Shown here: in pieces, positions 16,801-60,695 of the stretch
How the letters are laid out: the number at the start of each line of letters is the position of its first letter
How positions within the stretch are numbered: position 1 is the first letter of the stretch
Virus record (IMG/VR): IMGVR_UViG_3300044957_001172
Coordinates: 1 to 60,695 of that record
Strand: one strand, 5' to 3'
Length of the DNA: 60,695 nt
Source: a virus
Taxonomy: Duplodnaviria > Caudoviricetes
Notes under the pieces: generated by a model
Told to the model about the DNA's origin: nothing
The model's input: only the letters and a program-made list of their open reading frames with translations
Databases searched by the model: none
Translations under genes and position numbers: made by a program

Positions 16801-17740
16801 CAAAATTAAATAATTTAATATCTGCGTTAAATTCAATTATAGGACGTTTAGCTCTATTTTTAAAATCATATTTTAATTCTGTTTTATTGATTACCGAAGT
16901 TAGTCTAATTATTTCTGAATGAAACCAACGATTATATCTTGACCAAGGATTTAAATCTCTACTTGCCCTGTTTATAGTTATATAATCGTGAATCAATGGT
17001 AACGGTTTATCTGAATCAAAAGAAATTGTATCAAAATCAGTATTATCAAACATTTCATTAAAAATAGTACACAAATTTTGATTTGGAACTAACGACAAAA
17101 AAGGCACAAGAATAATTCCAATTCCTACACCTTCTACAATATATTCTGTGTTAGAAAAAATAATATTTGAACCAGAAGATAATTCTATAGGAAAAGTCAC
17201 TTTCATTCCATTACTAAATGCATAACCATTTGGCATAGTGTAACTTGGCATACCAACAATTAAATTGTAAATATTTGTAAAAGTATTCACAACTATAGGA
17301 TCTGGACCATCTGGTAACCAATAGTATTGATCGTAATTTACTAACATATCCCATACAATTTTAGGGTTAAAAGTATAGCTATTAGTATCAAATAATCTAT
17401 CTATATTTGGTAATGATTCTTCGTCATTTGTATAGGCTTCTTCTGCGATCAATGTTCCGATTAAATCATTAAAACTTACAACATGTTCAATTTCACCTTT
17501 TTCGTTTCTAAAAACTCCTGCAGGCGATAATTGATTTACTTTCCTTATAGGAATCGATTCAGAAATATATGTATCATCTACTGGATTATAATTAGGAATT
17601 AGCTTACTACCAACATATCCATCAATTCTTTCTAACTCAGGATTGCTTAAGAATTGATCTAATGTATTAGATAAAAATTTATCATTTTTAGCAGATTTAA
17701 AATATTCTGGTAAAAAATTAATTGATTTTTTTTCTATCAT
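4889..17740 (-). CDS. Giant baseplate wedge protein (gp7-like position), multidomain
   Basis: 4283-aa ORF right after the gp6-like gene; FG-x-x-(I/V)-A propeller-like repeats, (I/V)-x-x-x-G-x-GY repeats, KPYHTKIR motif. Confidence 0.65.
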   Translation of the reverse strand: MIEKKSINFLPEYFKSAKNDKFLSNTLDQFLSNPELERIDGYVGSKLIPNYNPVDDTYISESIPIRKVNQLSPAGVFRNEKGEIEHVVSFNDLIGTLIAEEAYTNDEESLPNIDRLFDTNSYTFNPKIVWDMLVNYDQYYWLPDGPDPIVVNTFTNIYNLIVGMPSYTMPNGYAFSNGMKVTFPIELSSGSNIIFSNTEYIVEGVGIGIILVPFLSLVPNQNLCTIFNEMFDNTDFDTISFDSDKPLPLIHDYITINRASRDLNPWSRYNRWFHSEIIRLTSVINKTELKYDFKNRAKRPIIEFNADIKLFNFGENGINNIDLLDNSTEYPFVNIQGSIGYYIDGVLVSAGIRVIFNNSYDKFIRNRVYKVNINSGTNQISLVEDVSSRAKNSDSISVNEGIFYGGKSLYYDAEFQIWKLSQQHFKHNQPPLFDIFDDNGKSYSEQDNKNNFNGTKIFGYALGDGIVDEILGFSIKQNGNFIGIGSYQFTNYFDIETFTSIENQQTKIKKVSSGYLKRANRLENVWNNTKFYTSFVPITQEIFVTENTTTLEMTLLYPFEPTFATPFHSAVVNGVTVNTKNQIIDNKLIFTFANTVTRGSYVGLKYRGFPASIKFPFNPNLYYSMPVGLASNPLNDIVSNLTLAQLTDNVSSMLEMQRFDKFVGQFPGSSNLRDLPNIEIEPSKILQHEHPIAFALIFLGNAKHNVIDAIRFVSNEYTQFKQKFLNSIAKLSYQNNVVELVDEVLDEINQNFKPSDLFYRSDMIAFGKNKKVRKISVTSLSNVQFPLGMAFNLNYLSYTSVLVYRNKVQQLHHCNYEFDTDNDSVKFITPLVVGDIIELHVYQNTLGCYIPSTPSKLGIYPKYEPKIFLDDRYAGSPVKMIQGHDGSLTKAFYDFRDDALLELEKRIYNNIKVFYNYINAVESGVNNGKVSINSLKRRIIPGSQYRYTHEQLLAREFYKWLYKNNLSLKNTSYNDLDWKTYNFKNSQLINNPPDFQPFNPSGTWRFFYAHYFNTDRPNTHPWEILGFSVKPNWWEKYYGAPPYTSLNVTLWDDISVGRIREGEYEGSYRFFRISNITSYCPVDEFGNLRNPQEFGILGENTLNDKKSDWEFGDYSPVEVTWRNSSEFPFANTIAVILLSPAKMIGPYFDTSRIRRNIVQQLIYTEDNLYLDPRKMLIEGYNTEQTAGLINFITEYGKNKNPNYLKILHDDLKYFDMNLFYPLGGFTSKDKLKIKINAVDPDSTSPGLFLPPEDYNLILYTGAPIRLARISGIIIEITGNKFILKGYDRSYPWFTIYKPIITNSSPNLTIGGKEETYVTWQPYYGDANNGLNSIDITNTSAKFYRQGQIVYHNQFYYRVSISHSATRTFDDSYFIRLPSLPTFGGVKVLIPTSYERQVTRINYGNEYSDIQEVFNIILGYGNWLEEQGFVFDEYNQELNETLDWLYSGKEFLFWTTHKWAEGNVITISPFADKLKFSYPYGIVKEINVYDKYFLLKADGQNLPIENIDIIRTKEVTILSTKNTEDGLFFAVLEIIQKEHGIVLNNTTIFNDTIFEPASGYKQERIKLIGFRTKFWNGDIVSPGFVFDNVKVVDWEPFRRYYPSQVVQFRGKYYSANLLIVNEKNFDFAKYTQLDNKPQKKLITNFEYRINQFDDFYSLDIDNFDIEQQQLAKHLVGFSSRNYLDKLIPDETAQYKFFQGFIKEKGIKKSIDKIVKYNKSILTGIELKEEWAFRIGTFGIGKTFKELEFVLEEAIEIENPFIVTLSSTNTTSSVIHYITKNEILIEPEEFVIDKAFTTIDGTYDTNNLKLLHAGYVRIDDVTATAYNKNSLLDIANNSLIQEGNTVWLGFKENGDWDVYRYSKKICKIKGVFVSGPGQEITFVTDISHNLQIGDIISVTRFSTQVDGVYIVKSIPKNTHFIVSSTLVGIVNEVLQYYGSIFVFQSVRFTNADALAENRELIFYDEGTKIWIDNDIDKKWMVLNKTNNYYSPKEYTFGNIPVYQSLGSAMYISKHTKTVLISSPNYFPQRFFNVQYGNVKVGTIDVNEDLKFYFDYSLNLNSGLDYVYCQPNVPTEFGHSLAYDIGKDLFIAGAPRATKVRASNTATVLAPLANNTFTARTYINEGLVKVSTRNVSNTKENTKFVLAQVFGPNLDNTRFGQSVYVNQVAKTTATTLLVGAPTGIGSGTVFAYKINPDLSITAFNTSAIQSINLITQPVSSSSIVYVRIAGPNQVGGSSATAVAVKVGLTVTNIIVTNRGSGYSYPPIISFTATSFVTIGVATATIGFVKLVGTSSITLNQQAEFGAKIAGDFAGLNLAVGAKKQNFDNGYLGVIQIFDQNLYWKQTLYSPFKKNENFGHDIEVSSSGKFLIASSINASTDYNTYGRIAVYKKNESDAYELSQFIDNPLENTDLIFGQDISINESEDILAVSSLGTNRSLSVRFFQNIKQFRGETIFDNNETTFITKVEDAGAVYTFNRFGDKFIQAQELLAKSMVIGSQYGKAIAVSDKNILVGAPFNNSIFTSIDKSRFFQFKRIDNKSLSWKKFRYQDNLVDTDNFQKLSLINKENLEVVEYLDIVDPLKGKIIGLAEQELRYKAIVDPAIYSIGIDGLSVDTNKNWLDDQVGFLWWDLSTTKFVWYEQGDEIFRKNNWGKLFPGASIDVYEWVKSSYLPNEWASLADTNQGLTRGISGQPKFPDNSVISVKQVFNSVTGVFENVYYYWVKNKSVLPNIRTRKISAAQVAQLISDPIGNDTKFAQILSKNSIALANIQGLLSGSDIGLNVQFDSNPNDLNHTEWILLSENDSTSMPTELLNKKLIDSLLGRDEIGNKVPDRTLNARNRYGLSIRPRQTIFRNRFEALRNLFDYVNNLLAGIPITGNYNFENLIKLDPIPVESSGEYDFIVDDLDQLQEVEFTEFIAATATCVINNGKIVSVAVTNRGKGYKFPPKIEIIANKEHTAIIKSVINDKGQIIGTIIENSGNNFESNPKIFIRPHAAIVTSDINSNQRWALYYFNYNFNIWNKQKTQLYNTPMYWDYKDYKSSLFQELKSVNYIVNNVFELNSLSNLLVGDYIKVTNVGDGRLVILEYIGPVGGNFDLNYNLVFAERGTLQFKSALYDINQGRYAYDSLTLDETLFDQLPDFELKNILNALKNDIFTDELKIYWNKFFFQAVKYAFTEQKHIDWAFKTSFVNVKASIAELDQYSAFRVDSSQYIEEYIKEIKPYHTKIRNFLSGYEKLDLAELNVTDFDLPAYYNYNNQRFESVEIPTAINGLNLTTETSILLNKFPYTYWFSNYRYYVKEVVISDGGAGYNQRPNVVFSYENSAETRSPAAQAYIRNGQVFKIVVTDPGANIIGNFGNNESIHVDLVGGGSVSKLAKASVILANDTTRKNVIAIKFDRYSKNSELGNKIVTYTTITDGYSTSFELPFLANNDKTTIIPTLNKKLIYQTSYDILNFADNTKINKNKSSFVFKNIIPQKNSELKIIFEKNINLFNAIDRIENYYVPNGNMPGKNLKLLMYGMEYPGNLIQTLGFAYSTPLLDSTATNLNIFDNGEGFNNFVDYYSKNKLIHGIDRNSTSLVMSSVLGIVPGQTLNYLHVSNLTSGPVFRTDTIVQSVITAQNRVILSSPNYTIRSAVSTSTAVGSQIRIETKSPFFGTLRIGDVLEISGIETSQFNQINTITNIESNSSFFILSNQILPFTISTCTNTSSFRVYSILQPISVNNNVLDSFDFNVGECIIPDLKIYTSATIITESYTATFIVTGDNVNFGLGRTFGYAIIPLDPVNAVIPQEFESGLNIQISNSVTSLPLSFNITTLDNVNLSVGTYKPFRVNLYSYITSATVNINPVASVDLYLTSLPITNPGYQAATYKMDLKDYLGNKMTQVSEGDIVYAVVTATTASNVVFGAYGRVFRLAVTGTNITQNDIIYSQISPDIIVEKPDDFPITFRVQMFEDYTTEGLEELFLNLGTFLLYTENSFASYVATKSIYILDTSITGEFTYQLFSTATTIYEGTTTTIFLKTINLPVGTQIPWTLTSVVGSLNYNDILINDAPTLSLTGTFTLVDGAPDYIGYQIGYVKLGALVDVSSEGYESFETWRLSLINLPYYIDINVRDSIVANYGNKNLWSYAYAANKAFTRVKITTTGNFEFDISPFGSTPSVKPVSAAEIYSLNPVGLGNLFVRATIEPTDSLWQGNIKITGPGIATAITATDVLTNGFNPIKGSWVTILTAASYVNVNGEAGWYAEGSFNTDTNSVAIGGFNLIIDISTSSEGPIVVSGLYRCRVSSIGTII

Positions 17741-29639: not shown

Positions 29640-30533
29640 ATGACCAATTTAAGAAAAGTAAAATACTTAAATAATAGAGATCTGCTGGAAGAAATTCATA
29701 AAAGCAAATGTAGTTTTTCAAGTTTTTTGAGCAAAGATTTTCAGCAACATGACATAATTATTCTAAACATTTATAAAATTACCTATAAGACTATAGCAGA
29801 AGCTAGAAAAAATAGAGCAAAAAGAATAGGTTTAAAAAATTTTTTAGATATAAAAAAAACCGGTGACAAACAAACTAAACTGGCAGATGTTACTCCTGAT
29901 TACAAAAAAATACCAAAAAACGAATTAGTTTTTAGAGTAATGACTTTTGAACATATCCCTTTAACTCCTGGAAGAAAAAAAACAAATAAATCAATATCAG
30001 ATAATCATGAAAAAGTAAACTTTCCTCCTTTTCAACACTGGAAGTACAATGAAAAAGATGAACTAATTTGTGTAGGTAAGAGTCATTGGAAAGGAGGAAT
30101 CAAAACTGGTAGATTTTCAAAAGATCACGGTAGAATTACAGAAGAATTGGGCCGTATGTTTATTAAGCTTTCAGAACGTTATGCTCAACGTAGCAACTGG
30201 AGAGGATATACCTATATTGATGAAATGAGAGGACAGGCAATACTGCAACTTAGTCAAATTGGTCTACAATTTGACGAATCAAAATCAGAAAATCCATTTG
30301 CTTACTACACAGCCGCGGTTAATAACAGCTTTACTAGAATTCTTAATATAGAAAAGAAAAATCAAAATATTAGAGATGATTTATTGATTGAAAATGGGTT
30401 AAATCCTAGCTCAACAAGACAAAATTCTCAAGGATTTGCAAATGAAATCGCTAGACAAACCACATTATATAAAAATTCTAGAATGCCTAAAAGTGATGAG
30501 CAACATGTAGAAGACGACGAGCCTACCTCTTGA
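29640..30533 (+). CDS. Late-transcription sigma factor, T4 gp55-like
   Basis: YLNNRDLL...LSERYAQRSNWRGYTYIDEMRGQA...FDESKSENPFAYYT...F.RILN.EK; adjacent to gp47/gp46 as in T4. Confidence 0.85.
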   Translation: MTNLRKVKYLNNRDLLEEIHKSKCSFSSFLSKDFQQHDIIILNIYKITYKTIAEARKNRAKRIGLKNFLDIKKTGDKQTKLADVTPDYKKIPKNELVFRVMTFEHIPLTPGRKKTNKSISDNHEKVNFPPFQHWKYNEKDELICVGKSHWKGGIKTGRFSKDHGRITEELGRMFIKLSERYAQRSNWRGYTYIDEMRGQAILQLSQIGLQFDESKSENPFAYYTAAVNNSFTRILNIEKKNQNIRDDLLIENGLNPSSTRQNSQGFANEIARQTTLYKNSRMPKSDEQHVEDDEPTS

Positions 30534-30575: not shown

Positions 30576-31589
30576 ATGGCATTATTTAAAAAAGTCGCAT
30601 GTTTTACCGATCTGCATGTGGGAGCGAAATCTAATAGTACACTTCATCTACAAGACTGTGAAGACTTTGTAGATTGGTTTATTAATGTAGCTAAATTAGA
30701 AAATTGTGAAACTGCTATATTTTTAGGAGACTGGAGTCATAATAGAAATAGCTTAAATTTATATACTTTAGATACCAGTCTTAGACTATTAGAAAAACTA
30801 GGTTTGGCATTTAAACAATTTTTTTGGTTTCCAGGTAACCACGATTTGTTCTATAAAGACAAACGTGACATTCATAGTTCAGCATTTGGACGTCATATAC
30901 CAGGTGTCACTGTTGTAGACTCTATTACTACTCTAAAAGATGTTACACTTGTTCCTTGGTTGGTAGGAGACGAGTGGAAAGCTATGAAAACTGTAAAAAG
31001 CAAATATGTATTCGGACATTTTGAACTTCCTAAGTTTATGATGAATGCGATGATACAAATGCCTGACCACGGTGAACTACGTGCTGAAGATTTTCAAGGT
31101 CCGGACTATGTATTTAGTGGGCATTTTCACAAACGTCAACAGAATGGTTGTGTCATCTATATAGGTAATGCTTTTCCACACAATTATTCAGATGCCTGGG
31201 ATGATGAACGAGGTATGATGACATTACAATGGGGAGGTGAACCTAAATTTCATAATTGGGAGAATGCTCCTAAATTTAGAACAATTAAACTAAGTGAACT
31301 AATTGATCGAAAAGAAGATCTAATGAAATCAAAAATGTATCTTAGAGTAAATCTAGATATAGACATAAGCTTTGAGGAGGCTAACTTTATCAAAGAAGAA
31401 TTTATTAAAAAATATGACATAAGAGAAATCAGTCTCGTGCAAGATAAAAATAACCTAGAAAGCAATTTTGAAGATAGCCCAGATACTAAATTTGAAAGCA
31501 TTGATCAAATCATATCAGAACAACTGACAAATTTAGACGGCGGTAACTTTGACAAAAAACTATTGATGAATATTTATAATGACCTATAA
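30576..31589 (+). CDS. Recombination endonuclease subunit, gp47/SbcD/Mre11-like
   Basis: Metallophosphoesterase motifs DLH, GD, GNHD, GHFE, SGHFH. Confidence 0.92.
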   Translation: MALFKKVACFTDLHVGAKSNSTLHLQDCEDFVDWFINVAKLENCETAIFLGDWSHNRNSLNLYTLDTSLRLLEKLGLAFKQFFWFPGNHDLFYKDKRDIHSSAFGRHIPGVTVVDSITTLKDVTLVPWLVGDEWKAMKTVKSKYVFGHFELPKFMMNAMIQMPDHGELRAEDFQGPDYVFSGHFHKRQQNGCVIYIGNAFPHNYSDAWDDERGMMTLQWGGEPKFHNWENAPKFRTIKLSELIDRKEDLMKSKMYLRVNLDIDISFEEANFIKEEFIKKYDIREISLVQDKNNLESNFEDSPDTKFESIDQIISEQLTNLDGGNFDKKLLMNIYNDL

Positions 31590-33366
31590 GATTAAAAATC
31601 TAACCGTTAAAAATTTTATGAGTGTAGGTAACCAAACACAAGGCATTGATTTTGATCAAGAGCAGTTGACACTGGTGTTGGGATCTAATCATGATCTAGG
31701 TGGTGATGACACAGGTTCTAGAAATGGCACAGGGAAAACCACAATAATCAACGCCTTGAGTTATAGCCTATATGGTCAAGCGTTAACTAATATTAAAAAA
31801 GAAAACTTGATCAACAAGATCAATAACAGAAATATGTTGGTCACTGTAGAGTTTGAAAAAAATAATTTTAAATATCGTATAGAACGTGGACGCAAACCAA
31901 ACGTTCTAAAACTATTTGTTAACGATAAAGAAATTACCGCAGAAAACCAAGGCGACGATGAAAGCCAGGGTGATAGTAGAGAAACACAAAAATTTATAGA
32001 ACAAATATTGGAAATGAGTCACTCTATGTTCAAACATCTAGTGGCCCTTAACACTTATACTGAACCATTCCTAGCTATGCGTGCCGGAGATCAACGTGAG
32101 GTAATTGAACAATTATTAGGAATAACTTTGTTGTCTGTCAAAGCTGAAGAATTAAAAAATAGAATAAAAGAAAATAAAGATCTTATTACCAAAGAAAATT
32201 TTAGAATAGAAGGTGTTAAAAATGCAAATGAAAATGTGCAAAAAAGCATAGATAGCCTTAAAATAAAAAGTTCAGTATGGCTTAATAAGCATGATCAAGA
32301 TTTAAAAAATTTAAGTCGTGCCATAGTAAACTTAGAAAAAGTAGATATAGAGACAGAGATTAATTTACATGCTGCCTTAAAAATATGGTTAGAAAATGAT
32401 AAAAAATTAACAGGTCTAAGAAAACAACAATCTACATTAGAAACAGCTATTCAACAATCTAATAAAACCGTCACAAAATATACTCAAGAAGTAGAAAAAC
32501 TTAAAGATAAAAAATGTCACGCCTGTGCCCAAGGTCTGCAAGATCATAAACATGAAGAAATGCTAAACGAAGCTCAAAAAGGCAAGATAGAAGCAGAAAC
32601 ATATGCTCTCAAACTAATTAATGATTATAAACATGTTGTAGTCGAAATTGAAAAAATAGATAGTAATAATAAGAGACCCAATACTTTTTATGAAACAGAG
32701 GCAGAAGCATTAGAGCATAAAAATAACTTAGACAACTTAGAAAAGACCTTAATAAAAAAATCAGAAGAGCCAAATCCTTACGAGGAACAAATTATCGAGT
32801 TAAAAAATTATGCTATTCAGGAAATCAATTGGGAATTCGTGAATGGATTAACAAAATTAAAAGATCACCAGGAATTTCTTTTAAAATTGTTAACAAATAA
32901 AGATAGTTTCATACGAAAACGTATTATTGATCAAAACCTATCATATCTTAACAAACGTCTTAGCTACTATCTAGATAAACTAGGATTGCCACATCGTGTG
33001 ATATTTCAAAACGATCTTTCTGTTGAAATAACTCAATTAGGACAAGATCTTGATTTTGATAACCTTAGCAGAGGTGAGCGTAACAGATTAATCTTATCAA
33101 TGAGTTTCGCTTTTCGTGATGTATGGGAAGGATTATACCAACCTATCAATTTATTGTTTATTGATGAACTAGTAGATTCCGGTATGGATTCTGCAGGAGT
33201 TGAAGGTGCCCTAGCTGTTCTAAAAAAGATGGGCAGAGAACGAAAAAAGAATATATACCTAATAAGTCATAAAGATGAACTACAAGGTAGAGTCAATAAC
33301 GTGCTCAGAGTGATAAAAGAAAATGGATTTACCAGTTATTCGAATAATTTAGAATATGTCAACTGA
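31579..33366 (+). CDS. Recombination ATPase subunit, gp46/SbcC/Rad50-like
   Basis: Walker A NGTGKTT, coiled coil with CHAC zinc hook, LSRGE signature, Walker B LLFIDE, ISH. Confidence 0.93.
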   Translation: MTYKIKNLTVKNFMSVGNQTQGIDFDQEQLTLVLGSNHDLGGDDTGSRNGTGKTTIINALSYSLYGQALTNIKKENLINKINNRNMLVTVEFEKNNFKYRIERGRKPNVLKLFVNDKEITAENQGDDESQGDSRETQKFIEQILEMSHSMFKHLVALNTYTEPFLAMRAGDQREVIEQLLGITLLSVKAEELKNRIKENKDLITKENFRIEGVKNANENVQKSIDSLKIKSSVWLNKHDQDLKNLSRAIVNLEKVDIETEINLHAALKIWLENDKKLTGLRKQQSTLETAIQQSNKTVTKYTQEVEKLKDKKCHACAQGLQDHKHEEMLNEAQKGKIEAETYALKLINDYKHVVVEIEKIDSNNKRPNTFYETEAEALEHKNNLDNLEKTLIKKSEEPNPYEEQIIELKNYAIQEINWEFVNGLTKLKDHQEFLLKLLTNKDSFIRKRIIDQNLSYLNKRLSYYLDKLGLPHRVIFQNDLSVEITQLGQDLDFDNLSRGERNRLILSMSFAFRDVWEGLYQPINLLFIDELVDSGMDSAGVEGALAVLKKMGRERKKNIYLISHKDELQGRVNNVLRVIKENGFTSYSNNLEYVN

Positions 33367-33679
33367 ACTTGAAAATAAGTATAGAGAGTTGTACTCAAAA
33401 TATGTGGACCTAAATATAAATCTGCATAACTATCATATAGATTTCTTAAAGCGTAAACTAAAGAAAGATGCAGGTATTATACGAGATGATCTCTCGGCAA
33501 TTAGAAATATTTTATTAGAAATGAAAAAATTAGTGTTAGCGGTAAGACGAGAACACATAGCGAATTGGAAAATAAATGTACAAAACAGGTACTACTATAC
33601 TAAAGATGGAAAGAAAAAAATAAAAAGGGAGACAAAAAAAGATCATGGAAACTACAAATCACCTGAAAAAACTATTTGA
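33356..33679 (+). CDS. Hypothetical basic helical protein
   Basis: 107-aa ORF overlapping the end of gp46-like; Lys-rich C-terminus. Confidence 0.55.
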   Translation: MSTELENKYRELYSKYVDLNINLHNYHIDFLKRKLKKDAGIIRDDLSAIRNILLEMKKLVLAVRREHIANWKINVQNRYYYTKDGKKKIKRETKKDHGNYKSPEKTI

Positions 33680-33839
33680 GATTTTTTTAAAAGAAGATGA
33701 AAAATTCCTAGTAGGCAATTCTACAGCAGGAACTAGAGCAAGAAAAGCACTTGCTGAAATTTCTAAAGCTGTAAAATTACGACGAAAAGAAATTACATTA
33801 GAAAAAAATTCTAGAAAAAAAGCTAAAATCATAGAATAG
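33645..33839 (+). CDS. Histone H1-like protein (Hc1 family)
   Basis: KF..GNSTAGTRARKAL.EI.K..K..RK motif typical of Hc1/HctA-like proteins; GGGAG RBS. Confidence 0.75.
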   Translation: METTNHLKKLFEIFLKEDEKFLVGNSTAGTRARKALAEISKAVKLRRKEITLEKNSRKKAKIIE

Positions 33840-33867: not shown

Positions 33868-34596
33868 ATGATTGAAAATAAATTTAAAAATTTAGAATGC
33901 AAAATATGTACATCACATACTAAAGTTTATGGTATAGTTGATTTTAATAAAAATTGTGAAGAATTAAAAAATAAATTTTTACCTTATTCAGGTAAGGCTG
34001 TTTATTATCATCAATGTTCTAATTGTAATTTTATTTTTACAACTGACTTTAATCATTGGTCGTTAGAAGAATTTAAAAAAGAAATTTATAATGATGATTA
34101 TGAAATAGTCGATCCAGAGTATTGGGAAATAAGATCAAAAAATCTAGCACAATGGATTCAACCTTTATTAAATGGAGATAAAACTTTAAAGATATTTGAT
34201 TATGGTTGTGGAACAGGTGCATTTGGAGACGAGTTAGAAAGTTTAGGTTATAGCGTAGATTCTTGGGATCCATTATGGGGCGATGCTTTACCCCAAACCA
34301 AGCTTAATTCTTACGATGTTGTAACAGCATTTGAAGTACTAGAACATTCTCCTACACCATATGAAACAGCCAAAGAAATTATTAGTTTAACTAAAAAAGA
34401 TGAAGGTCAAATTATTATTCATACATTAGCAAATGATATAATTAGTGATGAAGGTGTAAATTATTGGTATATAGCTCCTAGAAACGGACATGTTTGCATG
34501 CACAGTAATAAAAGTTTAGATATTTTATTTGATAATTTAGGTATGACTGTATTACATTTAGCGCCAAATACTCATATCATATCCTGGAAAGAATGA
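33868..34596 (+). CDS. Class I SAM-dependent methyltransferase with N-terminal CxxC/CxxC
   Basis: FDYGCGTG motif I, YDVVTAFEVLEH, CKIC and CSNC. Confidence 0.85.
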   Translation: MIENKFKNLECKICTSHTKVYGIVDFNKNCEELKNKFLPYSGKAVYYHQCSNCNFIFTTDFNHWSLEEFKKEIYNDDYEIVDPEYWEIRSKNLAQWIQPLLNGDKTLKIFDYGCGTGAFGDELESLGYSVDSWDPLWGDALPQTKLNSYDVVTAFEVLEHSPTPYETAKEIISLTKKDEGQIIIHTLANDIISDEGVNYWYIAPRNGHVCMHSNKSLDILFDNLGMTVLHLAPNTHIISWKE

Positions 34597-35027
34597 CTTG
34601 GTATTATAAAGATACTATAGTAAATGAATTACCCGACGATTGTATTGGTTTTGTATATCTCATTATCAATACAATTACAAATAAAAAGTATATAGGCAAA
34701 AAGTTAGGAAAATTTTCCAAAACAACTTACAAAGTAATAAAATTAAAAAACAATACCAAGAAAAAAAAACGCATTAAAACAAAAATAAACTCAGACTGGC
34801 AATTATACTACGGCTCAAACGATCAACTTTCAAAAGATGTAGAACAATTAGGAATGGACAAATTTCACAGAGAAATATTATTTTTTTGTAAATCAAAAGC
34901 AGAATGCAGTTACATAGAGGCACGAGAACAATTCACAAGAAAAGTATTAGAATCAGACGAATATTATAACGGACAGATATCTGTTCGTGTCCATGGCTCA
35001 CATATCAAAGGCAAATTAAACGGTTAA
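34593..35027 (+). CDS. GIY-YIG endonuclease (stand-alone, EndoII/Seg-like)
   Basis: GFVY-x10-YIG, YYGS, conserved E (YIEAREQ) and YYN. Confidence 0.85.
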   Translation: MTWYYKDTIVNELPDDCIGFVYLIINTITNKKYIGKKLGKFSKTTYKVIKLKNNTKKKKRIKTKINSDWQLYYGSNDQLSKDVEQLGMDKFHREILFFCKSKAECSYIEAREQFTRKVLESDEYYNGQISVRVHGSHIKGKLNG

Positions 35028-35500
35028 GGCTCGCGCAGGCCAACTTCGTGCGCTCTATACCTGGACCTCGGGTCGCAGGGATGATAGTCTCTCGCCGTAA
35101 TGAGCACTCAACCACTACCCTGCCAGGATGAAGATCGCTAATGCCGCGATTTGGTTGTTTGAATAGGAACAAAAGGCTAAAAAGACGCTTGAGGGATCAA
35201 GCACGTTCATATAGTATGTCTGCGTATATTATATGAGCCGCCGTTGTATAAGGACGGAACGAGTAGGTACCGGACAACCGCCTACGTTTATGTTACATAA
35301 ATATGACATTAAGTACTTTAATGCCAAGTTTATGTCACATTAATAGTTCTAACGCTGAATGACTTGCTAACTCGGATGATGTTTCAAGCCAAACTTTGCC
35401 CGCCCTGGGCAAAGTATGACCATTTAATCTGGATGATTTATTAAGAAAAGGAAAACTGCTTCGAGTCGAAAGACGAAGAAGCATACGAACGTAGTTCGTT
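35028..35500 (+). ncRNA. Candidate large structured non-coding RNA, family not recognised
   Basis: No long ORF, GC content well above the flanks, at least 10 stems with G-U pairs and GNRA loops favouring the + strand. Confidence 0.65.
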
Positions 35501-35508
35501 TATAAATA
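35501..35508 (+). promoter_or_regulatory. T4 late promoter consensus TATAAATA
   Basis: Exact match directly after the last hairpin of the structured segment. Confidence 0.55.
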
Positions 35509-35513
35509 TTTAA

Positions 35514-35666
35514 TATTCCGGATTATATTCTGCGGCATCTGAAGCGCCAAAAGATCTAGAAAGAGAACCTACAGCAAAGACGATAAATATGCAGGGGATA
35601 GTGGTAAGAATCAATAAATTAACTCGTGCTCAACAAAAACAAATTTTAGCCTTGTTAGGGAAATAA
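35514..35666 (+). pseudogene. Gene remnant or small ORF resembling part of the downstream protein
   Basis: Open frame ...MQGIVVRINKLTRAQQKQILALLGK* resembles LKNIIGKLNPNQKQAIAAELQK of ORF 35668; the only ATG is at 35589. Confidence 0.35.
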
Positions 35667-35667
35667 T

Positions 35668-36459
35668 ATGAGAATTAATGAAATAATTGTAGGAAATCCA
35701 ATAGAACTTGATGAAGGTTTTACAGATACCTTGGCAAAAGGTGTGGGTGCTACAGCTCAAGGAATTGGGGCAGTTGCAGGAGGAGCGGCAGGCGCCTGGG
35801 ATCGTATGAAGCAAGGCTACGCTAAAGGTAGAGCAGCGGTTGCAGGAATAAATGATCCAAAAACACCTGATACCACTGCTCCTTCATCTGCAAACACAAA
35901 CGTTGCTCAAACAGCAGGCACCGCAGCCACAAGCGGAGGAATATCTGCAGCTCCTGCCAGGCAAGCAACTTCTGACGAATTAGAAGACTTAAAGAATATT
36001 ATTGGAAAATTAAATCCTAACCAAAAACAAGCAATTGCGGCAGAATTACAAAAACCTAAAATACAACAATCCCAAGGAAATGCTACAAAGGCGGTGACTC
36101 CAGCTGCTTCTGCAACACCAGCTGCTTCTGCAGGTAGCACATACGATCCTGCTAAAGCAAAAGCAGATAGAGATGCTAAAGCTGCTTCTGATCGTGCAGA
36201 AGCAGCTAAACAAATAGCAGCTACTAAAGCGGCTAATGCTGAAAAAGCTAAACAAGATGCTGCTATTAAAGCAGCCAAAGATGCAGCTATGGCAAAGCCT
36301 TTATTCCAACAAACAGCAGCGGATAAATTAGCTATTCAAAAGGCTCAACAAGTAGGTATAAGAGAAGCAGTTACGGAAAGTAAACAACCTAAAAAGCCTG
36401 CTCCTAAACAACCTACGAAGAAGCCTGCTCCTGGTAAGAAGAAAAAAAAGTTGTTGTAG
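35668..36459 (+). CDS. Ala/Lys-rich putative head-internal protein (possibly extends to 36494)
   Basis: 263 aa; MRINEII...LDE N-terminus; low-complexity Ala/Lys/Gln. Confidence 0.6.
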   Translation: MRINEIIVGNPIELDEGFTDTLAKGVGATAQGIGAVAGGAAGAWDRMKQGYAKGRAAVAGINDPKTPDTTAPSSANTNVAQTAGTAATSGGISAAPARQATSDELEDLKNIIGKLNPNQKQAIAAELQKPKIQQSQGNATKAVTPAASATPAASAGSTYDPAKAKADRDAKAASDRAEAAKQIAATKAANAEKAKQDAAIKAAKDAAMAKPLFQQTAADKLAIQKAQQVGIREAVTESKQPKKPAPKQPTKKPAPGKKKKKLL

Positions 36460-46081: not shown

Positions 46082-46147
46082 TAAATAAAATGTCTTTGTG
46101 ATTTATGCGGAACCCACCGCGTAGAGCATAGAACGCTCAAATAGGAG
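46082..46147 (+). promoter_or_regulatory. Late promoter plus structured 5' leader
   Basis: TAAATA at 46082, hairpins TATGCGG/CCGCGTA and GAGC/GCTC, then AGGAG RBS. Confidence 0.5.
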
Positions 46148-46155
46148 AAAAACAA

Positions 46156-46581
46156 ATGGGACGTCCATTAAAAAAGAAATTTTTTAGCGCAGATGCTAAC
46201 AATAATATTAAAGTACAATTTCATAACGGAACCGCGAGCGTAGCTGGTTACATTGTACATCAGGTAGGTGCTCGTAGATTTAGATGCAGCGATGGCACTA
46301 ATCAACGTGTATGTAAATTAGTTAATAAAGCTTCAGCGTCTATTCTTGCTGGAGAAATGACTATCACAGTTAAGCAAGATGACGGAACTGTAGATCAGGT
46401 TTTAAAAATCTCTGGCAGAATGTTAACAACTTTAAGTTCTAGCGGAAACACTATTAGAAGACCTTGGAACTTTAGTACATCAACCAGTGATACATATGTA
46501 CAAGTTGAAGAGGCTGGTACATCAACATCAGCAGTTACAACAGCAACAGGTGCAACTAACCTTGAAGGCGACTCACAATAA
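46156..46581 (+). CDS. Conserved virion protein (possible head decoration)
   Basis: 141 aa, MGRPLKKKFF start, strong RBS, own terminator, directly after the capsid gene. Confidence 0.6.
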   Translation: MGRPLKKKFFSADANNNIKVQFHNGTASVAGYIVHQVGARRFRCSDGTNQRVCKLVNKASASILAGEMTITVKQDDGTVDQVLKISGRMLTTLSSSGNTIRRPWNFSTSTSDTYVQVEEAGTSTSAVTTATGATNLEGDSQ

Positions 46582-47193: not shown

Positions 47194-50100
47194 ATGTCAA
47201 CTAATGTATTAAAATTACCAGGCAACTACAAATTACTAGCACTGAACGGTAGTATTTATATCGAGTCACTCCAAGAAATGACTCACATTTCAGGCGGATA
47301 CATATACAACGAAGCACAGGATTATATTAAAAATCAATCTGGACAGTTTATAGAAAATCTAGCAGATTCTTACATTAATAATGAAGCACAGCAGTATATT
47401 ATCAATCGTGCTGTCGGTGATTATATTGAAAATAAAGCTGGTAGTTATATTTTTAATAAAACAGACAACCAATATATTAAAAACGAAGCTGGCGATTATA
47501 TAGAAAATCTAGCAAATAGCTATATCAATAATGAAGCTACTTCATATATTAAAAACATTGTTTTAGGTGGCTATATTAAAAATGAAGCAGGTCAAGAAAT
47601 TGAAAATCTTGCAGGGGCATTTATTTTAAATGAATCTAGTACATATATTGATAATAAATCTGGAGATTATTTTAATGTAGAAGCGGGGGGGTTCATAAAA
47701 CTTGTTTCTCTTACTGATGACATAACATTAATATCCCCAAGCTTAATAGAGTTTGATTCACAAACAATTAAAATAGGTATATCAGATGGTCAACAAGTAG
47801 ATCCAAAAGCACAGTTTATAAATGACCTAATACCTGCGGAGAGTGAAACATACGATTTTGGAACCGAAAACAATAGATGGAACAATTTATATATTGAACA
47901 GGTGAAATCATATTCAGAGGAAAATGTACAAAATCCATATTTTAGACCATTTGATCCTACCGATGTTTATGGTGCGACACCTGGTAATACTGCTCAAATA
48001 GAGACTGCCAATGCTCAAAGAGAAGCTAGTGGAACTTTTTTCAAAGGTGGTATAGGAATTCAAAAAGATTTAAATGTCGGAGGTTTCATTTATGGTCGTA
48101 TTGAAATAGCAAGTACCAGTTTAAGTGTTAATGTTACATCAACAAATGTAAACTTAGATTTTTATCCGACATTCGCTCTCAATACAGGCAACCAATTTCT
48201 ATTCATAGATTCTACAGGATTATATGGAGGTTTAACTTATAATCCGTCGCAAGGTTTATTAACAACAGACAAAGCAAGAATTGCATCTACACAAACTGCA
48301 ATCAGTACTATGTCAGCGGCTCTTACTATTACGGGCGGTGTGGGAGTAGGACAAGACATAGTAATAGGGAATGGTGCCTTCCCTAGAGAAGGCAATACAG
48401 GTACCATAGGTAAGGAAACATTAGAATGGGCAGACGCTTATGTAAATAACTTATATACCAAGTTTATTACAAATACTAATAGTAATATAACAATAGCACC
48501 TGCAACAGAATTAACAGAAATTATAGGCGACATAAGAGTACGAGGTGTTAATCCTATAGGTACACATCCAGTAGTAAGTAATACACTTTATGTTACTATG
48601 GATGGAAACGATACAAATGATGGAAGAGCGTTAGATGCTAGCCGTGCTTGCAGAACAGTAGGTGGAGCGATAAAAAGTCCATATTTCAAAGAAGGCACAC
48701 AAATACTTGTCAGTGCAGGATTTTATCTTGAAGACAATCCTATTAGACTTAAACCTTACACAAGTGTTAGAGGTAGTGATATTAGAACTACTTTTTTAGA
48801 ACCTATTAATAAGACACAGGATCTATTTCATTTAGAAAGTGGTTGTTATTTAAATTACATGACATTCTTAAATGGACGAAGTGGTCTATTAGAAGGTCCA
48901 TATGAATCTGGATTCAATAGAGGTGCATATGCTACAGCATTTCCTCCTTTAGAACAAAATCAAAGAATAGATTTATTTCATAGTCCATATGTTCAAAATT
49001 GTACGAATCAAAGTGGTCCTTGGCTTAGGGACGGCACTATGTTTATCCCTAACCAAACGGTACAGGTTCCAGTGGCAGTTGGAACAGGATCGTGGGCTGC
49101 AAACACAAGTTCTATAGTTGTAAAAATAAGTTCAGGTACAGTAGAATTAGGTATGGCTATCAATGCTGGGCAACAAAATCCAGGATTTTTCAATGCTAGA
49201 ACCTTGTTGTTAGCTAATAAACCATTTATACAAGAACAAGTTGTTACATATGTTGATGAAACATTTAATAGTGGAAATTTTGTTTATGATCAAGCAAAAT
49301 GTGCTAGAGACACTGGTTTGCTTATAGATAGTATTGCAATAGACCTATTACAGGACAGCACAAGCGAAAGTATTTTTGCAGGTCTACAATATTGGAGACA
49401 ATCAGGTTATGTAGATGCTATTGGTAGCCAAATAACTACAACAACAGCAGCGATAAATTTCTTGAAAACACAGGCAGCAGCTACTGTTAATAATATCGCT
49501 GCTTCTCAAGTCAATTCTGTATCTGCTAGATTTGATGAAATTTTAGAGATTCTAAATACAAATACAAATAGTTTAAGCAACGGTAATTTTGCAGAATGGA
49601 TCTCAAATAAAATAATTTCAAATTATACAGCATCTACTATTTCAGCAGTTCTAAATGGATATTATGCATTAGTTAATAATAGAACTACTATTACTAATGC
49701 TGTTATAAATTTTGTTAAAACCACTTATCCTAGTTATCCTTTAAATACAGCTACCTGTATTAGAGATACAGGTTACATTATTGATAGTGTGGCATTTGAT
49801 TTATTACACGGCGGCAATAAACAAAGTGTAAAAACAGGTGTATACTACTTTGGATACACAAATAATACATCAGAAGTAAGCGGCGAAGTCCCGCAAACTA
49901 TTACTGCTTATAGATTTTTAAAAGGCATCATTAAACAGGTAGTTCAAGGTAAGCCAGTTACCACAAAATATCAAAATTCTGTCAATCAGGTAATTGCTGG
50001 ATTAAATAGTGCCACTTTCTACGAAGCAGATGTACTAGGTGACAGATTAGATTTAATTACAGAAATAATTAGAAATGGCCCTGATGAGTATCAAGCTGTG

Positions 50101-53100
50101 GGAAAAAGGATCCCTATAAATCTTACAGAAAATACTTCGACGGGTGTGCAAAATGCATTTGATCTATTATTAGCCAATAGATCATTTATTGTTGCAGAAA
50201 CTATTGCCTATATAAATTCTACATCAAATATCTTTATTTACAATAGAGAAAAATGTAGAAGAGATGTAGGAATTCTGGTAGAAAATATTGCATACGATGC
50301 AGCGTTTGGTGGCAATCAAAAATCAGTAGAAAGCGGGTTATCTTATTTTGACGGTGTTATAAGTAGAATTGCCGGTCAAGAAGTACAAACTATATCGGCG
50401 ATAGATTATCTTAACGAACTAGCAGAAAACATAATTGTAAATGTTACTTGTACAGATCTTTTACAGGTAAGTCCAGGTGTGACAACTGCTACTTATAAAC
50501 AAGTAATAAACACTGCTTTACAAGGAGGCAGTGTATCCAGTGATTCTATTAAATATCTAAAGAATATTATTACTACAATTATAGATAATGGACCTGCTGC
50601 GGCTCCGCAAGTTTATACAAGTCCTGGACCAGATAGTGCATTTATTTCTGCAGAGATACTAATTCAAGCAAATAGAAGTTTTATTCAACTTGAAACAATA
50701 AATTATATTAATCATGTTATTATTCCTTCAACAAATCCTGGATATTTTCCTTATAGCGAGATAAAATGCAGAAGAGATACCGGATTAATCATAGATGCAT
50801 TGGCTCAGGATCTCTTATACAATACATATTATCAAAATCATAGCAATAGTCAATCTACTTTTGCTGGGCTTCAATATTGGGAACAGGATTTTTATGTAGG
50901 AAATATCAAAAACCAACTAAATCCAACATTAGAAGCCGTAAAATATCTCAAGGACTTGAGTGTAAAAATTATACAAAATATTACACCAGATGATGATCTT
51001 ATTCTTAGATATCAAAATATTTCTATTCAAAATACTTCAACATATCAAGCAGCTACATCAGTAGAAGCTGACATAATTAGAAACAATTTCAATGTAATTA
51101 TAGAAATAATTGGAGGCAATAAAAAAGGATGGTCTGATAGAATAATTGCAAATGGAAGGGCCAGTAATATTCAGAGTAAAATAAATGCATTTAATAATTT
51201 GAGATTAAATGCTGCCTATCTAGGAGCAGAAGTAAATGCTTTTATTCAAGCTACCAATTGGGGATTTAGCTATGACACCAACAAATGTGCTAGAGATGTA
51301 GCATATATGGTAGATGCTGTGGCATTTGATATGCTTCACGGTGGTAACAGACAAAGTGTGCAAAACGGGCTATATTATTATGGATTCAGCACTTTAGATT
51401 CCAATGTATATAATGAGACAACACAAACTATAGCTGCATTTAATTATTTAGGCACAATTATAGGACAAGTCATCCAAAATCAAAATGTAACTGCAAAGCA
51501 AAAAGAATTTAAGCAAATTTTTAGTTCAACTACAGCTACTATTGCTGAAGCAACAGCCATTACAAATAGTGTTAATACTATTACAAGTATTATAAATCTA
51601 GGACCTTCAGTTGCATCATTGCCTCGTGCAATAGCTATGACGGCTAGTTCCACTGCCTCAGTATTAACAGCATATGAACTGATTTACTCAAACAAACAAT
51701 TTTTAATTGAAGAAACTATTGCCTTTATAGATGAAACATACAATTCTGGCAAATTCAATTATAATGAAGCCAAGTGTTATAGAGATGTTGGATTAATTCT
51801 AGATGCAGTAACACAGGATATAATTTTAGGTGGTAATAGTAAAAGTATAGAAGCAGGAGTATCATATTGGTCAGGCGGATACAATTCCATTGCAGGACAA
51901 GAAAGCACTACTACTCTTGCTATGAACAGAGCAAGAGATGTTGCATTAGCAGTTGCTAGTAACATCGCTGTAACTGCTACAACAGGAACAATAATTCAAC
52001 AAATAATAAATCCATTTTTTGACTACGGATATGAATATGGCCCGCAAGAAGCAATTAAAAGAAACTTTAAAATAATTACAGATATCATAGAGAAAGGCCC
52101 TTTATATGCGCCTCCGATTTATGCAGGTGGTGGATTATTTTCATTAGTTGGTATAAATGGAGCAGATGTTAAATTAAGTCCTAGGGTAGTTTCGTTTCAA
52201 ACAATCACAAACAATACTTATAGAATTGGTTTAGATACGCCAACTATTGGCTTTGGAAATAATGCAACACTTTATTTTGGAGAAAGTTTAATTTTTCCTT
52301 ATAGAGATAAGCAAGTAGATATTTTTAGTTATGAATACACAGGAAATACCTCAACTTGGGCTCAAAGAAAGATTGATCCTATAGGAAGTATGGGCGGAAG
52401 TCTTGTTGACGGCGGTGTTATTAGTGATAGAAGTCCTATTCAATCTTTTGTTTACGATGCATTTACTCAGGTTAATCAAGGTGGAAGAGGAATACATATT
52501 ATTAGAGACGGATATGCTCAGCTAGTATCTGTGTTTACTATTTTTTGTTCAATTGGTGTAGAGGTAGATTCAGGCGGAATCGCTTCTATCGTTAATAGTA
52601 ATGCTAATTTTGGAACGATTTGTTTACAGGCTAAAGGTTATGGAAAGAGAAAGTTTTCAGGGCATGTTTATAATCCCAGCTACAAATCATACCCTGAAAG
52701 TCCACAAATTCCTGGATCAGATTACCTTGACCAATATTATCCAAGCGGATTTTGGCCAAACGAAGCAAGGGTTATGATATTCTTACCCGACCTTGATGAT
52801 AGACCTCATATTTCTCTAGTTATGGAAATAGAAGCTCCTGAAACTGTTAGAGATTTTACAGGCAAACTTCTTCCACAACTGAACGAACAAGGTTTTCCCG
52901 GATTTCTCAATGCTAATCCAACAACGAGTTCATTGACAACAGGAAGTATTATAATAAGTCCTATCAATACCGATGGTATTTACATTGGTAATAGAGTCTA
53001 CATAAGGGATCAATTCGGAAAAACAACCAGTACAAATATTGATTCAAATGGTAATTTTATTCCTTATAGTGATGATGATACATTTGTTACAAATGTAGAG

Positions 53101-59694: not shown

Positions 59695-59739
59695 TAAAAA
59701 AATATTAACAAAATTATGGCTTTAATGTAAGAGAAAAAT

Positions 59740-60695
59740 ATGCTTATTTTGTCAGTTGAGAAAGATTTTAAAGTTAAAAATGGTCTTGTTATTAACAACA
59801 CATTAACTGTTCTTTCCTCAGTTGAGAGTATATCAACAATTTCTGGTTCTATTATTGTTGCTGGTGGAGTTGGTATTGGTGGTGCTCTAAATGTAGGTGG
59901 TGGAACTCAAGTCGCAGGTAAATTTACTGCCACTGATATTGTCAATTTAACAAATCTCACAAATGCAACATCAACTACAACAGGTGCATTGATTGTTGCT
60001 GGTGGAGTTGGTATTGGTCAAAACTTACATGTAGGTGGCGGTACACAGATTACTGGCCTTACAACTATTACCAATACCACAAATGCAACATCAACTACAA
60101 CAGGTGCATTGATTGTTGCTGGTGGAGTTGGTATTGGTGGTGCTCTAAATGTAGGTGGTGGAACTCAAGTCGCAGGTAAATTTACTGCCACTGATATTGT
60201 CAATTTAACAAATCCCACAAATGCAACATCAACTACAACAGGTGCGTTGATTGTTGCTGGTGGAGTTGGTATTGGTCAAAACTTACATGTAGGTGGCGAT
60301 ACACAGATTACTGGCCTTACAACTATTACCAATACCACAAACGCAACATCAACAAATACAGGAGCTTTACAGGTAGCTGGTGGTGTTGGAATTGATCAAA
60401 ACTTACATGTAGGTGGCGGTACACAGATTACTGGCCTTACAACTATTACCAATACCACAAATGCAACATCAACAAATACAGGAGCTTTACAAGTAGCTGG
60501 TGGTGTTGGTATTGGTGGTGCCCTAAATGTAGGTGGCGATACACAGATTACTGGTATTACAACTATTGCCAATACCACAAATGCAACATCAACTACAACA
60601 GGTGCATTGATTGTTGCTGGTGGAGTTGGTATTGGTGGTGCTCTAAATGTAGGTGGTGGAACTCAAGTCGCAGGTAAATTTACTGCCACTGATAT
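59740..60695 (+). CDS. Repetitive tail fibre protein, truncated by the window end (absent from the ORF track)
   Basis: ATG 59740 MLILSVEKDFKVKNGL..., frame open to the window end; paralogous to the upstream fibre genes. Confidence 0.8.
   Translation, partial: MLILSVEKDFKVKNGLVINNTLTVLSSVESISTISGSIIVAGGVGIGGALNVGGGTQVAGKFTATDIVNLTNLTNATSTTTGALIVAGGVGIGQNLHVGGGTQITGLTTITNTTNATSTTTGALIVAGGVGIGGALNVGGGTQVAGKFTATDIVNLTNPTNATSTTTGALIVAGGVGIGQNLHVGGDTQITGLTTITNTTNATSTNTGALQVAGGVGIDQNLHVGGGTQITGLTTITNTTNATSTNTGALQVAGGVGIGGALNVGGDTQITGITTIANTTNATSTTTGALIVAGGVGIGGALNVGGGTQVAGKFTATD
59854..60695 (+). repeat. Near-identical 138/120-nt coding tandem repeats
   Basis: Unit starts at 59854, 59992, 60112, 60250, 60370, 60490, 60610. 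Confidence 0.9.

Follow-up and report, generated by a model that had tools for sequence, protein, structure and literature searches.

The stretch of viral DNA analysed here, IMG/VR record IMGVR_UViG_3300044957_001172 (60,695 bases and, by CheckV, about 17% of the genome; hereafter the window), comes from a giant T4-like phage of fresh water that carries baseplate genes, a gp55-type sigma factor and gp47/gp46. Our subject is a conserved, structured RNA on the + strand at 35020-35499, which stands directly behind a small nuclease gene and belongs to the Rfam family Polynucleobacter-1 (RF01718). The nuclease gene, at 34593..35027 (+), encodes 144 aa, of which residues 3-129 match the Pfam family PF19835 (SegE_GIY-YIG; E 2.3e-30, 105.8 bits against a cut-off of 25), which places the protein in the GIY-YIG superfamily, its catalysis being predicted only. 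It also matches PHROG 447 and 7363, and because the domain spans residues 3-129 of 144 it consists of the catalytic domain only, with no DNA-binding module; compared by sequence with solved structures, it gave spurious low-complexity matches only. The next + strand open reading frame (ORF), 35668-36459 (263 aa), leaves a gene-free gap of 640 nt at 35028-35667. A preliminary description of this DNA had singled out the gap as the only long non-coding stretch and as richer in GC than its flanks, and both observations hold: ORF tiling leaves it as the window's sole long gene-free stretch, and GC is 0.49-0.53 at 34950-35174, compared with 0.22-0.33 in the nuclease gene and 0.31-0.35 after 35475. 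The gap opens with the locally GC-richest 150 nt (0.53). A second apparent gap, at 59695-60395, was rejected as gene-free since it is covered by the 3'-open ORF 59740-60693.

The element had been called unrecognised, and this part of the preliminary description does not survive. A cmscan search matches the first 133 nt of the gap, 35028-35160 (+), to RF01718 with 110.1 bits (E 5e-23, gathering score 37), across model positions 1-141 of 141, and all model helices are present in the window's RNA. The RNA thus belongs to Polynucleobacter-1, and the catalogued motif of 141 nt is only its 5' domain, about a quarter to a third of the whole; covarying structure continues beyond the model as a leader pseudoknot upstream and about 340 nt downstream. 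From 35161 to 35667, Rfam at E up to 10 returned nothing beyond noise. The suggestion that the RNA might be of the GOLLD/ROOL class or HEARO-like finds no counterpart in the models, since GOLLD, ROOL, OLE and HEARO gave no match in either the gathering-score or the E up to 10 scan. The remark that hallmarks of tRNA, tmRNA, RNase P and introns are missing was correct: ARAGORN called 0 tRNA or tmRNA genes in the window, and the group I/II intron and RNase P models gave no match even at E up to 10. Motifs resembling a hammerhead and a K-turn (UGAUGAGC..GCGAAA), judged by eye, were rejected, because the core they would need is taken up by a flanking helix and no ribozyme model in Rfam matches. In its table, the survey that named the motif lists it as 'Burkholderiales, fresh water/estuary' and, tentatively, as likely cis-regulatory (Weinberg et al. 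2010, Genome Biol 11:R31, PMC2864571). Beyond that survey, our literature search found no paper naming Polynucleobacter-1 or RF01718.

The search for relatives used a degenerate pattern derived from the conserved core, which hit viral contigs at 56 places and contigs of bacterial genomes at 34. RF01718 was recovered above its gathering score at 23 of the 34 bacterial loci and in all five phage records tested, each of which has one copy of the RNA. The phage loci were sorted by similarity downstream of the motif into four groups, A to D, with the window in group C, and two alignments were built from subsets that leave out near-identical and truncated loci: A1, with 11 group-C sequences, and A2, with 39 sequences (nine from group C including the window, six from B, two from D, eleven from A and eleven bacterial). 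A blastn search with 34593-35667 found no match in 50,697 phage records. With nhmmer, a profile of the bacterial downstream region finds the phage downstream regions at collinear positions, and the blocks common to all groups are a leader CUAC-N-GA, a near-invariant ACCGCC, two modules of the form 'hairpin + GUGUGAC', a hairpin whose internal loop is G/A-rich, and a hairpin at the 3' end. Within group C, conservation extends from the end of the nuclease ORF to the terminal hairpin at 35485-35499 and then stops. The bacterial copies, which are longer than the roughly 480 nt of the window's RNA and belong by record title mostly to Burkholderiales, are sporadic, with the RNA present in 2 of 151 sampled genomes of one carrier's family. 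The window shares the freshwater provenance of RF01718: six runs from six studies beyond the possible sources, all labelled lake water metagenome, hold 28-93% of the words sampled from it.

The comparison carries the case for a folded RNA. In A2, 10 helices with 40 pairs between them were counted, and 97.5% of their 1,499 cells hold a standard pair, as against 81.7 +/- 0.6% after column shuffling (0 of 500 shuffles reach the observed value) and 31-49% when the partners are slid, and 25 of the pairs change on both sides. Further pair types number 53 compared with 53.1 in the shuffles, which is no excess, so that the support rests on who pairs with whom and not on diversity alone. Outside the Rfam model, the 51 pairs of A1 are paired in 92.1% of cells (78.7% shuffled, 38-43% slid), 24 of them with compensatory changes. 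The shuffle control ignores relatedness; the slid control and three-way covariation across unrelated contexts weigh more. An unbiased column-pair scan of A2 and RNAalifold both recover helices outside the Rfam model. Folding energy points the same way: the energy of 35013-35500 is -143.9 kcal/mol, where 100 shuffled sequences give -123.7 +/- 5.7 (z -3.5, better than all 100). For the 640-nt folds, the opposite strand reaches z -4.8 and the + strand z -3.5, and since the opposite strand folds as well, energy alone carries no strand information. We assign the RNA to the + strand because the Rfam match lies there and because G-U pairs occur in the covarying helices; the earlier proposal of a large structured + strand RNA is borne out on both counts, by covariation in related phages and by the strand of the match. 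Read in this comparative light, 35020-35499 (+), the minimal span from the first to the last pair supported by A1 and A2, is a conserved, structured and multiply pseudoknotted RNA of about 480 nt.

At its 5' end stands the leader ACGG (35020..35023, +), the 5' strand of a pseudoknot with CCGU (35095-35098) in the loop of P3. Not one of the 39 sequences breaks any of its four pairs, one of which varies: G-C in 15, U-A in 14 and C-G in 10. The leader overlaps the end of the nuclease gene, where it forms part of the final codons AAC GGT ahead of the stop; the gap does start after the nuclease stop, at 35028, as first described, but the RNA begins inside the ORF at 35020. The bacterial copies and phage groups A, B and D have the same leader, covarying although the DNA there is non-coding, which makes it a feature of the RNA and not a by-product of coding. 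RNAalifold had paired the leader with 35242-35246 instead, a pairing that was dropped and whose place the covarying pseudoknot takes. Behind the leader comes the RF01718 domain located by cmscan (35028..35160, +), made up of P1 (35033-35037:35049-35053), P2 (35061-35067:35071-35078), P3 (35089-35092:35101-35104) and P4 (35109-35114:35152-35157), the last with inner hairpins at 35119-35121:35125-35127 and 35133-35138:35146-35151. Across the 39 sequences, P1 has compensatory changes at 4 of 5 pairs and P3 at 4 of 4, P2 and the inner hairpin are supported, and within group C compensatory change supports P4 and its hairpins. The stems GCGCA/TGCGC, CCTGGACC/GGTCGCAGG and CAACCA/TGGTTG, picked out earlier together with two inner hairpins, are helices of this model and show such changes.

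The part downstream of the Rfam domain opens with two hairpins. The first, GCUUGA-GGGA-UCAAGC (35187..35202, +), has a GNRA-type loop and is specific to the window's subgroup: its four closest relatives hold three compensatory variants, including GCUCUA/UAGAGC and GCAGUA/UACUGC (loci L034, L045 and L030), and over the 11 group-C rows it pairs in just 77% of cells because the other subgroup is misaligned there. The second (35205..35238, +) has 13 pairs including G-U, 10 of them changed on both sides, with 95.7% of cells paired in 11 sequences, which bears out the 13-bp stem seen before. Around the near-invariant ACCGCC lies a core pseudoknot (35243..35284, +), in which the helix 35243-35247:35274-35278 is crossed by 35264-35266:35282-35284; 3 of 5 and 2 of 3 pairs are compensatory, 97% of cells pair across the 39 sequences, and it was the unbiased column-pair scan that brought this pseudoknot to light. 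From the stem GTAGG/CCTAC proposed here, the outer pairs are supported and the inner CGG/CCG is not: its middle pair is A-C in most other lineages, and its base 35278 is shared with the helix 35243-35247:35274-35278. The long stem at 35290..35340 (+), listed at first among the stems of the element, proves to be an optional, lineage-specific inserted hairpin, found in 2-3 of 11 group-C sequences (the window and L036, and in shorter form L027) and absent in 8 of 11.

The 3' part consists of two modules and two closing hairpins. M1 (35363..35388, +) is a hairpin CUUG/CAAG whose stem is compensatory by eye (GAUCUA/UAGAUC in L045, GACUC/GAGUC in L046, GACUU/AAGUC in L027) and whose loop holds the word GGAUGAU at 35374-35380. 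The hairpin ACUUUGCCC/GGGCAAAGU follows (35393..35415, +; helix 35393-35401:35407-35415), with 5 of 8 pairs compensatory and 97.4% of cells paired in the 39 sequences; it upholds the stem first written as ACTTTGCCC/GGGCAAAGT. After this helix the single-stranded M2 (35431..35437, +), a stretch with no supported pairing, repeats the word GGAUGAU. An M1-M2 pairing that RNAalifold gave for group C was dropped because, as we read the alignment, the other groups do not preserve it. Next comes a hairpin closed by a GAAA loop and interrupted by a G/A-rich internal one (35457..35483, +); its two helices pair in 81.7% and 100% of cells and are mostly invariant, the stem TGCTTC..GAAGCA noted before being the one at 82%. 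Elements akin to this hairpin (UGAGC..GCGAA) are found at the equivalent position in bacteria and in other phage groups. The terminal hairpin ACGAAC-GUA-GUUCGU (35485..35499, +) is the stem ACGAAC/GTTCGT noted before; its cells are all paired (100%), 2 of its 6 pairs show compensatory change, and bacterial copies have hairpins resembling it.

The two copies of GGAUGAU belong to a wider regularity. All 39 sequences carry an identical word of 6-9 nt in M1 and in M2, while 16 distinct words are found between lineages, and the shared length averages 7.4 nt within a sequence as against 5.1 nt in cross-group comparisons. In group C alone there are four variants of the word, differing at two positions, and both copies change together. 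Two equal words that change in concert and appear unpaired would fit selection by a partner that binds at two like sites, and candidates for it would be a protein dimer or a trans target present in two repeats. The search for a variable, guide-like segment recommended earlier finds its words, two identical ones of 6-9 nt, and no target for them. The sole exact match to their complement in the window is the RNA's own opposite strand.

How the RNA is made can be read in part from its surroundings. Upstream, PHROG and Pfam annotation of the window's ORFs shows a co-oriented block with a gp55-type late sigma factor gene (29640-30533), gp47/gp46-type SbcD/SbcC nuclease subunit genes (30576-33366), a 64-aa ORF of the chlamydial histone-like family Hc1 (33645-33839, +; PF07432, E 1e-12) between gp46 and the methyltransferase, and the methyltransferase ORF (33868-34596), which overlaps the GIY-YIG ORF by 4 nt. 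Since the leader lies inside the nuclease ORF, transcription must start within or upstream of that gene; a scan for sigma-70-type promoters around the locus called 11 sites where 10.8 were expected. With the pseudoknot's 5' strand (35020-35023) in the last codons and no promoter-like site standing out, the RNA probably lies on the transcript of the nuclease gene, co-transcription being the simplest reading and the one proposed from the outset. No canonical terminator was called at the RNA's end on the + strand. Directly behind the terminal hairpin stands TATAAATA (35501..35508, +), a T4-type late-promoter-like word that we take to be the consensus of T4 late promoters, and NATAAATA takes this place in the window and 12 further viral loci, every one a member of group C. 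As this phage encodes a gp55-type sigma factor, TATAAATA, on the consensus we assume, probably serves the next gene (35668-36459) and marks the outer 3' limit of the RNA. In bacteria all 20 loci carry the word TAAATA, mostly as NATAAATA, at a distance of 59-84 nt ahead of the Rfam start, against a background of 0.007 per 46-nt stretch, and it is followed by a covarying extra 5' hairpin, seen by eye, that the window's RNA does not have. No sigma-70-like site was found on the RNA strand in the two bacterial loci scanned, and since the bacterial word resembles the late-promoter word of the phage, T4-like phages might be able to transcribe the host copies on infection.

The link between the RNA and the nuclease is loose. 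Six of the 56 viral pattern loci have too little upstream DNA, leaving 50 that could be judged. In 42 of the 50 the gene upstream is a GIY-YIG homologue (66-85% identical) that ends about 0-225 nt before the RNA, and in seven it is an unrelated 172-aa ORF of the Pfam family PDDEXK_15, a PD-(D/E)XK nuclease (E 1e-27 for L011); the last, L051, probably matched by chance within a long ORF and is known from pattern evidence only. In group D no GIY-YIG gene was found in any of the four records, which as fragments of 7-23% of a genome are too short to speak for its absence. From the side of the nuclease, GIY-YIG relatives of 59-85% identity occur in at least 582 viral stretches, and RNA linkage was counted on the best 80 loci. 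An nhmmer profile places the RNA's 5' domain just behind the gene in 24 of these; in 49 a protein gene abuts or overlaps the stop codon and no RNA match lies within 2.5 kb on the same strand, five end too soon to judge, and two have a non-coding gap with no RNA match. Those two gaps, L167:2378-3321 (944 nt) and L171:2936-3329 (394 nt), hold no detectable Polynucleobacter-1 domain and may contain divergent or different RNAs in the same slot. At the RNA-less loci (L102, L141 and 47 others) the nuclease stop in most cases shares 4 nt with the start of a following ORF, which is about 300-414 aa long; two of these ORFs were scanned and gave only sub-threshold Tetraspanin-like (membrane) matches. 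Locus L132 carries a NUMOD3-containing ORF on the other strand. Because the protein is kept at 59-85% identity in so many viral stretches, the window's nuclease behaves more like a core gene of its lineage than like a mobile homing gene.

The bacterial copies have other neighbours. A GIY-YIG gene occurs at only one of the 23 confirmed loci, L063, a 1.3-kb phage-like contig, and the other 22 have no adjacent nuclease gene. Where upstream DNA is available, 18 of 20 loci have a divergent ORF of 144-177 aa starting 141-230 nt away; it is Pfam DUF6641 in four of four tested, and 12 members align at 44-62% identity. Its AlphaFold model is good (pLDDT 84.5) and gave no fold match by Foldseek in the PDB (best E 0.29), in BFVD (best E 0.017) or by VIA-align (best Z 4.9), and our literature search found no paper naming DUF6641. 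Searches for the family in the window and in five larger phage records that have the RNA came back empty, but so did their controls, which makes this a weak negative. Five bacterial loci have a same-strand recombinase gene with a Phage_integrase catalytic domain 620-930 nt downstream (190-310 aa, about 190 aa in three of the five), and other loci carry unrelated genes there. The surroundings are ordinary chromosomal genes, for example aconitase, DapB and OmpA. In freshwater Burkholderiales an ORF of about 137 aa that matches nothing in Pfam, the divergent DUF6641 gene and the RNA form a small cassette between housekeeping genes, as at L073:2804-3573 and L064:2662-3909, sometimes with a small tyrosine recombinase or transposase near; Limnohabitans sp. 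Bal53 has two copies, and by record title Polynucleobacter rarus MT-CBb6A5 is another carrier. Taken from both sides, the nuclease is a neighbour of the RNA and not a demonstrable partner, and their linkage is loose, not obligatory.

The reading we favour, at a probability slightly better than even, is that this is a full-length Polynucleobacter-1 RNA, standing alone and acting in trans by binding or scaffolding, which is made at the tail of the 55-47-46-nuclease block. The RNA would be produced as the 3' tail of the gp55-gp47-gp46-...-methyltransferase-GIY-YIG block, perhaps trimmed afterwards, and would fold into a compact particle composed of the leader pseudoknot, the Rfam domain, the ACCGCC core pseudoknot, M1, M2 and two terminal hairpins. 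It would then act on its own in trans, neither as a guide of the nuclease nor as a cis-regulator, and the exposed GGAUGAU words would be the best candidate contact points for a two-site partner such as a dimeric protein. The structure is kept while the neighbours change, which is the signature expected of an RNA that acts by itself in trans; this action and the role of the twin words are what we infer from that pattern. Cis-regulation of the downstream gene does not fit, because a promoter-like word intervenes in group C and because in groups A, B and D the genes that come next, a 73-aa ORF and one of the T4_baseplate family, run towards the RNA on the other strand. Nor does the RNA occupy the 5'-untranslated position implied by the tentative class of the 2010 table, for it stands behind a gene. 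Several points weigh against the trans-acting reading. A gene for a small DNA-cutting enzyme lies directly upstream in 49 of the 50 phage loci, and this constant placement could mean a functional tie in phages. These loci come from related genomes, so that linkage and absence alike are confounded by descent; most records are fragments; and the calls of RNA absence come from a sequence-only profile on one strand over at most 2.5 kb, which would miss divergent RNAs. The twin words, for their part, have no full complement that recurs at a fixed position of the RNA among 26 sequences, no alignment column that pairs with them, and no excess of complements with up to one mismatch in the window (5, with 6.0 expected).

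Among the other explanations, a homo-oligomer made of RNA alone, of the GOLLD, ROOL or OLE kind, with M1/M2 or loops as contacts between molecules, seems to us unlikely. Cryo-EM work reported in a preprint has GOLLD, ROOL and OLE forming multimers (bioRxiv 10.1101/2024.12.08.627333), and by analogy the length of about 480 nt, the several pseudoknots, the GNRA-type and G/A-rich internal loops and the location in phages and mobile islands might hint at something similar; by eye, the group-C M2 stretch AUCUGGAU / AUCUAGAU is (quasi-)palindromic. The palindrome is, however, lost in the other groups, and none of the three models matches. Somewhat less probable again is a conflict between phage and host, in which T4-like phages would induce the bacterial copies as a decoy or defence, or the phage copy would mimic a host RNA. 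The conserved TAAATA upstream of the bacterial copies, which recurs behind the RNA in group C, the lack of a sigma-70-like site at the two loci scanned and the sporadic presence in bacteria of an RNA common to T4-like phages and freshwater Burkholderiales all speak for it, but the word may be a plain AT-rich -10 element or a part of the RNA, the promoter consensus is our assumption, and a Pfam scan of 46 neighbouring ORFs found no defence-gene families. A cis-acting 3' untranslated element that closes the operon by stabilising, terminating or processing the upstream mRNA would account for the RNA's constant position behind the last gene of a co-oriented block in phages, for the leader's overlap with the ORF end and for the terminal hairpins. 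We think it improbable to a slightly greater degree, since bacterial copies are divergent from their upstream gene and have a conserved upstream word of their own, since some 480 nt with long-range pseudoknots kept across phages and bacteria far exceed what a terminator or stabiliser needs, and since the end of the RNA has no canonical terminator.

The idea raised in the preliminary description, that the RNA is a partner or guide scaffold of the GIY-YIG nuclease, can be put in a form in which the twin words would supply target recognition to an adjacent enzyme that is nothing but its domain; we judge it more doubtful than any of the foregoing. It draws on the placement behind a nuclease gene just described, on the missing DNA-binding domain, on the five bacterial loci with a recombinase gene and on twin words that vary between lineages as specificity elements do. 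Yet the linkage fails in both directions: seven phage loci have a PD-(D/E)XK gene instead and 22 bacterial loci no adjacent nuclease gene, while 49 of the 80 closest GIY-YIG genes (59-85% identical) stand without the RNA and the protein is still conserved. The recombinase occurs in five loci only and several hundred bases off, the words are just 6-9 nt long with no excess of complementary targets in the window, and judged by titles and the starts of abstracts, no RNA-guided GIY-YIG enzyme was found described in the literature. A more general version, in which the RNA is a portable scaffold whose words read a twice-occurring nucleic-acid target and which recruits whatever domain-only enzyme lies alongside (for T4-like phages a GIY-YIG or PD-(D/E)XK nuclease, for the Burkholderiales cassettes a small tyrosine recombinase), strikes us as highly improbable; if true, these would be the first RNA-directed enzymes of their classes. 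We give the least credence of all to an RNA-primed replication origin. The locus adjoins recombination and replication genes of the gp46/47 kind and has AT-rich flanks, but selection acts on base pairing, including G-U pairs and pseudoknots, and not on an unwinding element; the RNA is the locally GC-richest stretch, bacterial copies belong to small cassettes that housekeeping genes flank on the chromosome, and the Pfam scan of the 46 neighbouring ORFs found no family of replication initiators.

As is often so for GOLLD, ROOL and OLE, a large and elaborate RNA is here carried by phage or mobile DNA, with a lake source for GOLLD by its name; unlike them, it has no match to their models and no tRNA genes nearby. 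With HEARO and omega RNAs, the partners of IscB and TnpB, it shares the position of a structured RNA beside a small nuclease gene on mobile DNA, but the neighbour is GIY-YIG and not RuvC/HNH, the RNA lies 3' of the gene with no terminal guide, and the two are often apart, not obligately together. An intron with its homing endonuclease would differ in that no intron model matches, that the 4-nt overlap with the methyltransferase leaves no room for a 5' intron part, and that bacterial copies are not inside genes. Sponge RNAs of the CsrB/RsmZ type repeat identical short single-stranded words, and the CsrA site contains GGA. The window's RNA resembles them in its repeated words and, in groups C and B, in a GGA in the loop; it differs in having two copies only, embedded in a large rigid fold, and GGA is missing from the words of phage group A and of the bacterial copies. 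T4-like phages have free-standing GIY-YIG (Seg) enzymes, of which T4 endonuclease II is a domain-only example, and the window's protein is like these in its SegE_GIY-YIG domain, its T4-like genome and its place between conserved genes, and unlike them in being 144 aa with no DNA-binding module.

Other features of the window are recorded here for completeness. Downstream of the 263-aa ORF lie a baseplate-hub gene on the other strand and genes for the portal, the prohead protease and the major head protein. In related phage loci, ORFs of 70-85 aa occupy the slot equivalent to that of Hc1, judged by position only. A second catalogued RNA, freshwater-2 (RF02980; 58.0 bits, cut-off 49.9), matches 46084-46158 (+), just past the major head protein gene, and its match ends in the AUG of the ORF 46156-46581. 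Two ORFs are very long: 4889-17740 (-), of about 4,280 aa, and 47194-54225 (+), of about 2,343 aa, which matches tail-fibre PHROGs. The ORF 59740-60693 (+), which runs off the end of the window, contains tandem DNA repeats with units of roughly 130 nt and probably encodes a repetitive structural or fibre protein.

Polynucleobacter-1 has been an Rfam orphan of 141 nt since 2010, and can now be seen as the 5' part of an RNA of about 480 nt with at least two pseudoknots. A tempting but weak reading, that of an RNA-guided GIY-YIG nuclease, is removed. What takes its place is an RNA common to giant freshwater T4-like phages and to small cassettes in the chromosomes of Polynucleobacter and Limnohabitans, and, since two cultured, harmless isolates carry it by record title, its expression, its partners and its phenotype are directly testable.

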